From Hormiphora californensis (taxonomy: Eukaryota > Animalia > Ctenophora), in the NCBI GenBank assembly GCA_020137815.1, contig CM035355.1:2294001-2358000 (forward strand): DNA of 64,000 nucleotides. The letters run 5' to 3'. Position numbers and translations under genes: made by a program. A model generated the notes under the pieces. That model worked only from the letters and a program-made list of their open reading frames with translations, was not told the DNA's origin and made no database searches. Positions within the stretch are counted from its first letter, which is position 1. Each line of letters starts with the position of its first letter. This document shows, piece after piece, positions 5,711-31,410 of the stretch.

Positions 5711-6738
5711 TGTTCCAGAAATTTAAACCATGAGTCTCTTTCTCTCCCAGGGGAGAGAAAGGGACTCAGCGCCATTAGTTACCACATACCCGGGTTGGTA
5801 TGGAGGTTTGCTGAGCGTATCCCATGGTTTAGTGACAAACAAACAAACAAACAAACACTCTGCGTTTAATGTCTACTGTCTGTACCCATGAGAGGTGTTA
5901 TGATAGTTTTTGTTTTTGATAGCATCCACTGCTTTAGCTTCACCATTAGCTTTTCTATTCATTAGTATAGTCTTCATTTCTTCCTCAATTGATACATTAT
6001 ACAAGCTCCTCACACGGTGCAACCCTCTGCCTAAAGCTTATAATCTCCTTATCATCATTGTACAGGCGTTTTCTGATGTTTAATGTTCTTCGTTTGAAAT
6101 TCTTCGCATTACAACGATCTTTCTTCAAACCTTTGACAAAGGTAAAGCCTGTAATATCCAGTACTACCTGAAGTTCACCATCTCTCTCACCATTTCTCCA
6201 GTCGTGTCTCCTGCTTCAATACACATCTTTTCGAGCTTGTCCCAGTCTAAAAGTATGGTTTTCATTGGCAAGTAATGCAGCCTTTTGTTAGGAGCGAAGC
6301 TCCACTTGGTCAATTTCTCACTACCGGATGCCAGGAGACAGCCCGATTGCATTGTTGCACCGGGCCTCTTCACAATTCCCCAATTCTATAATTCCATCGC
6401 CCACTGAACTGCAGTGTAACGCGCGCAGTAACTTTAACGCCATAATATTGAGAGTACAGCAGTTCAGTATCACGCGCACACCATCATCTCACATCCGGAG
6501 CTACAGCTTCTGCAGGGTGTGTTGTATCACCAGCAGCTGTAAGTCTTCTGTTACCACGGTGGAACCACGCCTAACCACTTTGACTACCACCGGACTTGTG
6601 GGGGTGCTGCCCCTGCACCCTCACTAGTTTCACCCCAATACCCCCTGACCGAGGCTGACGCCACTACTGCCTAACCATTACAATATTCTAATTAGTATAG
6701 TTTTCTCACCCAATCTAACTAAACCCAATTCCATAGCC

Positions 6739-9700
6739 ATGCCATACAGTTCAACGTATAACGATGCCAGGTCCGGGGGAACATACAACTCTGCTAGTAC
6801 AGGTGCAGGTGCAGGAGGGGGAACTTTTAACTCTGCCGGCAATATCCAAGCTAGTCTGGCTAATATGACTCAAGTTGGCTATCAGCCCTACCCCCAACGA
6901 CCCCACAGGTGTGTGTGTATTTGTACATCTTATTGACTGTAAACTCTAAGTAGATACAGGGGGGACGGGGGTATTATTATCTGGTTTATTCCGTATTGTA
7001 CCTCTTAGCAGTCTGCTGGCAGACATAACTTTTTCCAATAACACTTAATTTTAATTTCTCTCCCTCAGGAACCGGCCAAATTTTAACACTGTCAAGGCGA
7101 AGAAGCCCTTTACCTGCGCCAACAAGCACCCCGTAATGGCACTCAAAGAACTGTGTCCCGCTGCTAGTAAGTTATAATTCTCACTTTCTCTATCCACATC
7201 ATATGAAACTAAGCACCATCTCTTTCCACCATTTCTCTCTCCAAATTATATTTGAAACCATCTATCTTTCTCCAGCATTCGAGACGGCGTGTTCCTATCA
7301 TGTCCCAGGCGGTGCAGCAGTTGTTATGTCCTGTAAAGTTAACGGTGTTGTTTACCAAGGCGAGGGTACTGACTCCAAAATTGCCAAAGCTATTGCTGCT
7401 CACAAAGCCCTAGCAGGGATCAAGGTATGTTCAATAAGTTCATAGCGCTCTCTCCCACAATATTGTAAATTACTTACCTTATTATGGATTACAATATCTT
7501 CTTCTCAACCCCCTCTGTCCATGACAACCTCCACTCTCCTGCAGGCTAACGAGTTTGATTTGGTAAAGAAGGTTTGTGACTATGCTGAACAGAGACAGCT
7601 TGTTCTGGATCGCATCTCAAAATGGCAGGATGACCAGGTTAGTTGTAGTACTGAGCTGTCACATCATTGACCTGGCATGTACTGATTTTACCAGATAGGG
7701 TCATTTAAGCAGTATCAAGCACATGATAATATGTATCAAAAATAGGTTTTATCTCGCGTTACATCTGTCCCTCTCACACCACCTATTTCCAGGCGAAGAA
7801 GGCGGCTGCCAAGGAGGAAGTAGAGAAGAGGGAAGAGAGGGAACAGCAGGAGAGACTGGAGCGTGCGGAGAAACGGAAACTAGCTAAAGCGGAGACAGAT
7901 CAGCAGGCATTCCTTGCAAAACAAGCTCGAGAGATGGAGAAGGAGAATAAGAGGAAGAATGCTGCTGCTGCTGCTGCTGCTGCTGGAGAGGCTATGGAGG
8001 TGGGTGAAGGAGGGGATGCCGTGGTGAAAAAGGTATTAAATCATCTTCCGTTCACTCACGAGCACTCACACTAGTGTCGACTAAATCGCAATGACGAAAG
8101 TCGCGATAGTTCTTTAGTGTTTAGGGTTCCACAATCCACACCCGACACTCCTAGAAGAATAAGAAGAAGGTACTCTTCGTTCTTCTTACTGGCTATCCTA
8201 ATTAGTCCTAAATTTCTATCTACTGTTATATATAATACTCTATCTATTGTTATAATGTTAATATTTCATCTGTCAACAGCTGAAAAACAACAACGGTGCA
8301 GCCTCTACGACGCTAACTAACAACCCCAACACATATGGACATCTTTTGCATCGTTATGGCCCTGAAGTATCCGAATCATCTGCTGTCATTGATCCGGTAT
8401 GTATGATTAGTTAGTTTTCCATATATTGAGTGGTGGTAGAACCTTTTATTAAAAATTGGACCCAGTATTCCTTCAATTTAAATGATATTATAGGTAGCAC
8501 ATGTTAGCAGTTAGATAGTTTTATAACTTTAGTTTGAACCCTTTCAGAAAGGAAATGGTGGCTGCGCGCCGCTCTTCAAAAGCACCCTTACTGTGCAAGG
8601 ATTCACATTCGAGGCCACCGCCACATCCAAGAAGGGTGCCAGGAACGCGGCTGTCCTGGCTGCCTTTACCCAGTTCGAGGTGAATCCTCCCCCAATTGTC
8701 CACGAGAAGAGGAAGAAGACGTGGCAGGACCAGAAGAAGAGAACGAGGAACAAGAACCGACCCCAACCCGGTGAAGAAGGTAAGATAATTATATTTGAGA
8801 TGGATTATATGTAACCTCTCTCACTGACAAAGACACGACAAACAAGACACCCACGATTTACCAGGATACTGGGGGTAAAGGGTTTTGCCTTCGGGCCGGG
8901 TAAATATGGGTTCCGGTAAAAAGGGGTCCGACTGTATACATCACTTTGACGTCACTGTGACATAAACACGCCCGGTCATTACACTGCAACACTAGGTTAC
9001 GTCGAGCGGGCACCCTTTGTCCCTCCCCCCGCCACGGAGTTTCCCGACATGATCGCGGAACTGTCCTGGAAGGTTTTCGACGAGATCCTCGCTGAAGTTC
9101 CGGAGATGTTCCGGGCACGACGGAATGTCGTGGCCATTGTGAAGGTATTTGTGTGGCAAGGTTATTGGGTGTAATATTTCAGAGAAGAAGAAGGGGGAGG
9201 ATCACATTATACACGATGATTGATTGAAATGTGATCTCTTCCCTTCTTCTGGTAATAAATTGTACACAAAGTCAACTCTCGGTTTACCAAGTCTCTCGAT
9301 CTATTCAAATGCTGCCATATTTCTGGTCAAATCGAGGGTTGACATTGAAATTAACACCCAAATCTTGTTCACATAAATCCAAATTTACATTAAAATCCAA
9401 TCAGCTCTGATCAATGTAACCCCATTAATTGTTTAATAAATTAATTAATTATCCCTCTATCTAGGTTGAGGGAGAGGCCGTTATAGACAACTGTGAGGTG
9501 GTTGCCCTTGGAAGTGGGACACTCTGTATGTTCATGGACAAAATGGATGGTAGCGGAGAGCTAGTAGAGGATCTAACCGGTATGTGGGTTGTCTCACAAA
9601 GACTGTCCTCTCCGCGTGATTACAGTCAGAGCCTGACAATAAGTGGGAGATTTTTGGAGAAACATATTGTTTTTAGATCGAATAATACTGACTGACATCT

Positions 9701-29600: not shown

Positions 29601-31410
29601 GTGGACAAATTAGGAAACGGAACATACTACATCGTCGAGGTGAGAGAGAAACAACTTTGAAAGAGATCGAGGACCCCGTTCTGGAACTTTCAGGCGATCA
29701 GATCCCGCTTTTTGTCTGGGTACCGTAATCTGGGGTAACTTTGTTTTGCAGGGTAACTTTGGACACTTTCAAAATTTGGCTTTAGTCCAAAATTACCAAC
29801 AGATAACGACAGATTTGGCATAATTTTTGGGTGTACAAGTAATTGACCCACAAATGTCTAACTAACGGTACAGTTATTTTTTTCAATTCTATGCTAATTA
29901 GCTCCTAATTAGGGACAAACATAATTGATGTCAAAATCGCTAAAAATGTTCAAATCAAAATGGGTACCATAGATTTGACCGGGCTAATGACCGAATCAAG
30001 TTTGCTCCATAGAGTGGAAGGGTTTTGATCAAATAAATCGGGGCACCATTTTTCAAACCCGATCAATTACTTTAATTGAGACTAATAGGGGTGGCTAATG
30101 TTACCCCACCATTTTTTGAATTTTGGGGTAACTTTGGACGGGGTGCCAAAGTTACCCCACACTACAGGTTTTGAACTTTTGATGTGTGTAGAGTTGCCTT
30201 AGACCCTCACTGAATTATTTAGGGCCATATAACCAAGATTCAGCCCACTCCACACCCATTTCGATCCATCTATTCGATAGGTTAGTGAAAAAAAACTAGG
30301 ATTTGGACTATTCTATGGAGCTAAATCACAGTAATCCGGCCTGAAACCCATCAAACTTCAATAATTTGGGGTTCCTCATCCATCCTGTAGCTTGTTAGAT
30401 GGTATTGGATCTCTAGGCGAGTGTTCTAGTTCTTGTAGACAATCTATGCAGGAACACAGGTACCAAAACTCCTTTATTTAGCCAGTACCCATATATATAA
30501 TAAGTAGACCACTTCCTGTCTATCCAATTCAGCAAAAAGAACTATACTATACTAACACACTCGCCTAGATAGAGGGCCAATACCATCTACCAAACTACAG
30601 GATGGATGAGGGACCCCAAATTACTGAAGTTTGATGGGTTTCAGGCCGGATGTGGCAACCTCTAAATCAAGTCCGATTGAGCTGAAATTTTATTTGGTGG
30701 CTAGTTTCATCATTCCTCAGTGAGGAATGCAATCCTCTAACCCAAAAAAGTTGAGTCGACATCAACAAATTTTTTTAAATCGTGGGGCGTTTGGCTAACC
30801 CTATTGTTCTTTTTTAATTTATTGACCCATTTAAACCCCATTTAAACATTTTAGGTTCATTTATTTATCATTGCAAAATGTTCGAATTTATGTTTGTTCC
30901 AATATTACTATCGTGGGGTAACTTTGGACGGGTGTCCAAAGTTACCCCACCCTCATTCCAAAGTTACCCCATGCCCTAAAACCCCACTTACACTAAAATA
31001 CACGTTAATTAATGTAATTAAATGAGAGGGGACCAAAAATTTCACTAGTTATATCTGGTGTACTAGGTCTGGATCGGGATTATTTGGTTCAAAAATTTTC
31101 GAGTGTGGTTCTGGCAAGGAGTTATTTTAGGAGAATGCTAAAAAGTGGTACAAAGTTACCCCAACTTACGGTACTACTCAAATACTATTTGAGCCTAGTA
31201 TAGACTATTTGAAATAGTCAACTCTCCTATTTTGGTTCCCCCTTAACTGCCACGATTAATCAATCTAACAAGAACCCCTCTTCCCAGGTCGACTCGCAAC
31301 ACAGACGTCAGTACGCCAGGACCTCTTTTTTAGAGTCACACCCTCGGTCTCACGATAAGGATCGTCTTTTGCAATCGGACTGTGCCCCTCATTATTGCCC
31401 ACACATGTGA
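26621..31410 (+). CDS. HMGCS1: Hydroxymethylglutaryl-CoA synthase (multi-exon)
   Basis: [51 protein letters not shown] (catalytic Cys), [42 protein letters not shown] and last exon VDSQHRRQY. Confidence 0.97.
27504..27581 (+). mobile_element. Short MITE-like inverted-repeat element (same family as 31898-32057)
   Basis: TGGTGCTCC..ATATTGGC...GCCAATAT..GACGGAGTACCA. Shares TIR-like ends with the element at 31898. Confidence 0.55.
29231..29328 (-). mobile_element. Second copy of the 109-bp hAT MITE, one TIR truncated
   Basis: Reverse complement of 14941-15049, flanked by the direct repeat ATGGACAC. Confidence 0.8.
29723..31171. mobile_element. Non-autonomous Tc1/mariner-superfamily (Tc2/pogo-like) DNA transposon in the last HMGCS intron
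   Basis: TIRs CCGTAATCTGGGGTAACTTTG...CAAAGTTACCCCAACTTACGG flanked by TA, with repeated internal GGGGTAACTTTGG/CCAAAGTTACCCC motifs and no transposase ORF. Confidence 0.85.

Follow-up and report, generated by a model that had tools for sequence, protein, structure and literature searches.

Operons whose transcripts are resolved into single mRNAs by spliced leader (SL) trans-splicing are known from nematodes, tunicates, flatworms, Hydra and chaetognaths. Here we analyzed a candidate from a ctenophore, a row of seven consecutive plus-strand genes (two ADAR-like genes, ESF1, METTL1, SURF1, ALG6 and HMGCS) within 64,000 nucleotides (nt) of the Hormiphora californensis genome (contig CM035355.1, positions 2,294,001 to 2,358,000). 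This whole stretch is called the window, and its own coordinates are used throughout. An initial annotation, made from the letters alone, had proposed that the seven genes form one polycistronic unit. We consider the locus to be an SL-resolved operon in which at least the last three genes are polycistronic, with a probability of roughly 0.65.

The Hydra RFC140/flp bicistronic operon, like the present locus, belongs to a non-bilaterian and joins unrelated same-strand genes less than about 417 nt apart. Its gap contains a 3' untranslated region (UTR), a T-rich stretch, a polypyrimidine tract and an unpaired AG, as do the gaps seen here, and its upstream gene need not be trans-spliced. However, it comprises two genes with a gap shown to be promoterless and SL-resolved, whereas here, in another phylum and with another leader, seven genes over 25 kb are known from sequence (PMC3273482). 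The operons of the chaetognath Paraspadella share the housekeeping content of our locus and reach up to nine genes, with gaps below 250 bp from one gene model to the next and no operon-specific leader; this is again a different phylum, and SL reads were counted genome-wide there (PMC12460157). In Ciona and Oikopleura, genes inside and outside operons share one leader, and the first gene is often not trans-spliced. Ciona operons are mostly without intercistronic DNA and those of Oikopleura have about 30 nt of it, whereas the gaps of the Hormiphora locus appear to keep a separate stretch resembling an intron end (PMC1488885, PMC7986045). Estimated at about 60–190 nt, and set against the intercistronic regions of about 100 nt in the co-oriented SL2 operon clusters of Caenorhabditis, the spacing here is nearer to C. 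elegans than to Ciona (PMC7986045, PMC1488885).

Rebuilding the seven genes by hand returned exactly the starts, stops and six gaps that had been annotated. All models close, with GT..AG at each of the 53 introns and no internal stop, and Pfam profiles, run on 57 single exons, name all seven (A_deamin for genes 1 and 2, RRM_ESF1/NUC153, Methyltransf_4, SURF1, Alg6_Alg8 and HMG_CoA_synt). The stop-to-ATG gaps (Table 1; mean 290 bp) are far more even in size than the introns of the cluster, with coefficients of variation of 0.13 and 1.06, respectively. The contrast initially drawn with kb-scale introns was overstated: the cluster introns are small (median 155 nt, 1/53 longer than 1 kb), and the kb-scale repeats sit outside the cluster. 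Computationally, the arrangement resembles that of an SL-resolved operon, with adjacent same-strand genes, short gaps and, by score, an acceptor without a strong upstream donor in 6/6 gaps.

As annotated, each of the seven start codons lies 1–8 nt behind an acceptor-like YAG. Scored with a matrix trained on the window's own 53 cis acceptors, these sites reach 4.5–10.4 bits, which corresponds to the 21st–60th percentile of the cis acceptors. At a threshold of 4.5 bits, chosen post hoc because it is the lowest of the seven scores, only about 3% of control ATGs (4/158 exonic, 26/784 non-exonic) had an acceptor at this distance. All seven putative trans acceptors read TAG, whereas the cis acceptors comprise 41 CAG and 12 TAG (Fisher p = 1.3e-4, a comparison made post hoc). 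We rejected in-frame stops as an artefactual cause of this bias, since only one of the seven TAGs shares the reading frame of its ATG. In only 3/6 gaps does the AG next to the ATG score best within the gap. It could be argued that no splicing occurs at these sites at all and that a start codon context yields pyrimidine-rich 5' UTRs ending in TAG, the genes being plain close neighbours. Indeed, a plain YAG precedes about 23% of control ATGs within 8 nt (35/158 exonic, 182/784 non-exonic), and 3/7 sites score only in the 21st–26th percentile of cis acceptors. Seven out of seven at 23% each would, however, arise with a chance of about 4e-5, and the tracts upstream are like intron ends both in their pyrimidine content and in their exclusion of AG. 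We regard this explanation as highly improbable.

The claim that no donor is evident upstream was borne out in the six gaps but not 5' of gene 1. In their 1676 nt, the gaps contain no donor whose score attains the lower quartile of the true ones; the five weak ones present correspond to the background rate. Upstream of gene 1, by contrast, two donor-like sites (6517 and 6539; Table 1) face the acceptor, and this gene may be cis-spliced via an intron of about 200 nt. Weak donor-like sites also lie 5' of the acceptor in 3/6 gaps (11665/11745, 23908 and 26418/26448), the one at 26418 at an intron-like 200 nt. Together with the donor-like sites of gene 1 and the frequency of nested genes in Hormiphora (PMC8527503), they would fit acceptors of the ordinary cis type, served by non-coding first exons inside the 3' UTR or introns of the upstream gene, in an overlapping or nested arrangement. 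Yet the donor-like sites of the gaps do not exceed background, the other 3/6 gaps hold none above the tenth percentile, and the uniform use of TAG suggests a different class of site. That the AGs are cis acceptors of this kind appears quite improbable. In gap 1, a 25-nt tandem duplication at 11746–11804 doubles a branch-point-like CTAAC, the pyrimidine tract and the TAG (acceptors 11775 and 11800). A donor-like site of 8.6 bits at 24128–24139 (plus strand) overlaps the ALG6 ATG, 5 nt behind the acceptor, and its use would skip this ATG; in Bolinopsis, an ALG6 isoform lacks the first 89 residues (P0121).

The anatomy of the gaps is the same throughout. In 6/6 gaps, a 5' part of 106–216 nt (35–44% T, 10–20% C) resembles the 3' UTR of HMGCS, and a 3' part of 59–191 nt (27–53% C, 1–13% G) resembles an intron end; the observed compositional split was reached by 0–7 of 300 shuffles in every gap. 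RNA contigs stem from one run (X1, share 0.10), which was oligo-dT primed and sparse and covers the locus in pieces; stretches left uncovered (the middle of ESF1, ALG6 and most starts) are evidence neither way. The contigs show GT..AG joints at 8/32 predicted introns in 14760–31800 and are off-register at two more. An HMGCS contig of a second run (X2, share 0.00), which stems from a diverged relative and starts 3 nt ahead of the ATG, was left out of the evidence. A spliced METTL1 contig extends at least 155 nt into gap 4, to 21725, close to the break computed from composition at 21757. Between this RNA and the SURF1 acceptor there are no more than 169 nt, mostly pyrimidine tract, so that little room would remain in gap 4 for a promoter plus an outron. 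A poly(A) tail at 21725 was considered and rejected, the 18 loose letters there being sequencing adapter.

U-rich tracts are present in the gaps as annotated, but they are located in the UTR-like half, where the T-richest windows lie 190–320 nt before the ATG. In nematode SL2 operons, a U-rich (Ur) element stands close upstream of the trans-splice site, which is a different position. AATAAA is absent from all six gaps and occurs first 3' of HMGCS (Table 1); we rejected this absence as evidence for an operon, as only about one occurrence is expected by chance in the gaps (an estimate). The hexamer TTTGTT, present in 5/6 gaps, was likewise rejected as an operon signal in view of the many k-mers tried.

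The host lineage, that of a Pleurobrachia-type ctenophore, performs SL trans-splicing, as an SL operon requires: in Hormiphora, at least 56% of Iso-Seq reads bear a leader of 35–48 nt, and an SL is also present in Mnemiopsis (PMC8527503). The proteins of the locus fit this lineage. Residues 67–225 of HMGCS (159 amino acids) match a Pleurobrachia bachei model with 100% identity, and ALG6, SURF1 and HMGCS are 62–73% identical to Bolinopsis and Mnemiopsis proteins. Furthermore, part of the gene order has counterparts in these lobates. Mnemiopsis SURF1 (KAL5254255.1) carries the locus tag G013889, and the next tag, G013890, belongs to a fused ALG6+HMGCS model of 867 amino acids (KAL5254256.1) on the same sequence of 17,080,198 bases. 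A second model in the 90% cluster of Mnemiopsis SURF1 runs into off-frame ALG6 sequence (E 2.5e-7), and strand and order are therefore fixed. In Bolinopsis, HMGCS (XP_063682547.1) and ALG6 (XP_063682545.1/546.1) lie on sequences of equal length, 20,932,313, the species of the ALG6 entries being deduced. These records indicate that the order SURF1-ALG6-HMGCS was kept in Mnemiopsis and ALG6-HMGCS in Bolinopsis. In the fused model, HMGCS is entered two residues ahead of its Met. An acceptor just 5' of the ATG would give this entry point, which would speak against an absence of splicing at these sites. The search with SURF1 gave two proteins among seven candidates and no Bolinopsis record, and among contigs from JGI, eight related loci were all distant ALG6 (30–60% identical) and none useful for synteny. 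Microsynteny between Hormiphora and Mnemiopsis is reported to be rare, with four genes in the largest colinear blocks, although the assembly then used may have limited this (PMC8527503); the split of the two is dated to about 180 million years ago (PMC12221973).

The main rival is a compact array of singly transcribed, trans-spliced genes, each with a small promoter of its own in the gap or in the 3' end of its upstream neighbour and with a short outron replaced by the SL. The majority of trans-spliced genes are monocistronic in most animals that perform trans-splicing (PMC1488885), and the small introns point to a locally compact genome. The acceptors, too, are not specific for an operon because most ctenophore mRNAs carry an SL (PMC8527503) and stand-alone genes of the window show an AG before the ATG as well: among five other gene kinds, four have an AG that scores above 0 and lies no more than 40 nt from the likely ATG, weaker or farther away than in the cluster, and one has none. 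Single transcription is, however, hard to fit into the space between the METTL1 RNA and the SURF1 acceptor, and independent genes need neither a common strand nor a common gap size nor an order conserved in lobates. CGCG clusters precede gene 1 and a nucleoside hydrolase gene elsewhere in the window and are missing from all six gaps, a weak point since they are also found in introns elsewhere. All in all, we consider singly transcribed genes unlikely.

The operon reading thus gains new support from the order conserved in two lobates and from the small room for promoters, in addition to the acceptors, whose assignment rests on lineage and sequence and which by themselves do not discriminate. 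Several observations weigh against it. No contig among those listed spans two genes, and none of the four contigs on 20030–24420 reaches an acceptor, so that neither a spliced leader nor a start site was seen there; two of their three loose ends are adapter. The lack of donors is not significant alone (0 found, about 2 expected at the rate of intron interiors), and no motif shared by the gaps survives correction for the number of k-mers tried. The evenness of the gaps was measured within this cluster. The evidence for a conserved order covers the last three of the seven genes and comes from locus tags, accession numbers and fusions between models rather than from DNA or distances. Tandem duplication alone may explain why genes 1 and 2 are adjacent. 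That a leader is added at these acceptors seems very probable from lineage and sequence, whereas transcription of all seven genes from one promoter, with no internal promoter, is a tentative extension to which we give slightly less than even odds. The initial proposal is supported in part, and its single promoter is the more conditional element.

Under the operon reading, a promoter near 6400–6500 would drive one long precursor, of which gene 1 is perhaps cis-spliced. A CGCG/GCGC cluster in this region (Table 1) may be part of such a promoter. Many promoters and enhancers of ctenophores are marked by a GC-rich motif that contains CpG (PMC12221973). The 3' end of each upstream gene would form in the UTR-like half of the gap, giving 3' UTRs of about 100–220 nt, and the remaining 60–190 nt or so would act as the end of an intron without donor and without promoter, with the leader being trans-spliced to its TAG. 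The resulting mRNAs would be capped, the gene-specific part of their 5' UTRs would be very short, and transcription would end after HMGCS.

Table 1. Features of the seven-gene cluster and its flanks (window coordinates).
Feature	Position	Strand	Description	Evidence
CGCG/GCGC cluster	6420..6474	+	possible promoter region	6 matches in 55 nt vs 1 in six gaps together
Possible 5' UTR cis-intron of gene 1	6517..6736	+	donor-like sites 6517 (8.1 bits) and 6539 (GTAAGT, 4.7 bits); acceptor TAG 6736 (6.6 bits)	donor and acceptor scores
Gene 1, ADAR-like	6739..11562	+	760 amino acids, 16 exons	hand model, Pfam
Gap 1	11563..11807	+	245 nt; unpaired acceptor TAG 11800, duplicate 11775	acceptor score
Gene 2, ADAR-like	11808..16982	+	1006 amino acids, 13 exons; RGG-rich N-terminus	model, Pfam, two introns joined in RNA contigs
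Gap 2	16983..17276	+	294 nt; acceptor TAG 17275	acceptor score
ESF1	17277..20024	+	pre-rRNA processing factor, 641 amino acids, 7 exons	model, Pfam
Gap 3	20025..20269	+	245 nt; acceptor TAG 20265 behind 156-nt AG-free run	acceptor score
METTL1	20270..21570	+	METTL1/Trm8-type tRNA m7G methyltransferase, 240 amino acids, 5 exons	model, Pfam, spliced RNA contig
Gap 4	21571..21896	+	326 nt; acceptor TAG 21894	acceptor score; METTL1 RNA to at least 21725
SURF1	21897..23811	+	335 amino acids, 5 exons	model, Pfam, RNA contigs; Mnemiopsis orthologue G013889
Gap 5	23812..24135	+	324 nt; acceptor TAG 24127 behind 121-nt AG-free run	acceptor score
ALG6	24136..26312	+	glucosyltransferase, 458 amino acids, 3 exons	model, Pfam
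Gap 6	26313..26620	+	308 nt; acceptor TAG 26617 and, at 26418, a weak donor-like site	acceptor and donor scores
HMGCS	26621..31410	+	HMG-CoA synthase, 473 amino acids, 11 exons	model, Pfam, RNA contigs
HMGCS 3' UTR	31411..31755	+	RNA reaches 31649 or beyond; nearest AATAAA downstream at 31750	RNA contig, motif

The first two genes showed certain characteristics of ADARs, but also marked differences. A_deamin matches were found in exons of both and in the relatives P0265 and P0266, and a dsrm match, beneath the curated Pfam cut-off, in gene 1 only; the two genes are 26% identical to each other. The ADAR2 motifs CHAE, PCGD and SCSDK align to LTGD, PMGD and SPSDK in gene 1 and to CTAN, PMGD and SASDK in gene 2. 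All three zinc ligands (His, Cys, Cys) are thus replaced in both, and the position of the catalytic Glu is taken by Asp in gene 1 and by Asn in gene 2. As an active ADAR has the zinc ligands and the catalytic Glu, both proteins are predicted to be inactive. The relative search for gene 1 returned two proteins, both without accessions. As its 36% identical relative P0266 is without the same three ligands, gene 1 probably encodes an inactive deaminase that has been conserved. By their domain features, genes 1 and 2 are possibly ctenophore pseudoenzymes of the ADAD type. ADADs are inactive ADAR relatives with a deaminase domain that, as here, has lost its zinc ligands, and the double-stranded RNA-binding motif has a match in gene 1; in a survey of 22 species, however, inactive ADADs were found only in bilaterians, namely protostomes and deuterostomes (PMC9989829). 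The frame of gene 1 requires a predicted 15-nt microexon (8155–8169, plus strand) that encodes KNKKK.

Repeats were observed at several places of the cluster. A short interspersed repeat, CCAATCAG-rich, occurs in an intron of gene 2 (14944–15049) and in one of HMGCS (29240–29330), both with high RNA-contig coverage, and a similar 33-nt repeat lies within the N-terminal coding sequence of SURF1 (21992–22104). The listed loose ends of contigs on 14760–31800 are mostly GAA repeats. Rfam gave no match in the window. The terminal octamer of the leader, which ends in AATTTGAG, occurs four times in the window, and no further search for an SL gene was made.

Another observation concerned the minus strand, where a nucleoside hydrolase gene (stop 59294) is followed by a GNT-I family gene (ATG 58159) after a gap of 1134 nt. 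An 810-nt inverted-repeat element (58323–59132) sits in this gap between a UTR-like and an acceptor half; without it, the gap measures 324 nt, split 161 + 163. From this layout, the pair (58159–59294) is a candidate second operon. The intronless nucleoside hydrolase gene is covered by a 1646-bp tandem duplication of about 100% identity (59401–62681), with a second copy lacking the 3' end, which reflects either a recent event or an assembly artefact. Opposite-strand neighbours in the window are at least 0.8 kb apart. A GRB2-like gene (34529–41958, minus strand; SH2 match, name from sequence reading) and RhoGDI (48142–53442, plus strand) have kb-scale introns and stand apart, head to head across two retroelement remnants, unlike the compact cluster.

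No ctenophore operon was found among the matches listed from the literature searched, including the available parts of PMC10282587, PMC11184263 and PMC13498776, and the words 'operon' and 'polycistron' are absent from the Hormiphora genome paper (PMC8527503). Derelle et al. 2010 and Moroz et al. 2014 lay outside this coverage and may mention candidates. The locus is probably an operon, of a known kind and, as far as our literature search reaches, new for the phylum. A much wider view would be that ctenophores have long and common SL operons with an acceptor code of their own (TAG at trans sites, CAG at most cis sites) and a gap size fixed at about 300 nt, that the seven-gene 25-kb unit is one transcript with a core that withstood about 180 million years of gene shuffling, and that operons explain much of the little microsynteny shared between ctenophore lineages. 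We mention it as a speculation that is rather unlikely in its entirety.

In conclusion, the operon, if confirmed, would extend this mode of gene organization to an early-branching animal group and would explain fused ctenophore gene models. A promoterless gap would, as in Hydra, provide a means of expressing two genes together in Mnemiopsis. Because the Mnemiopsis locus is conserved, the claim can be tested on existing data.

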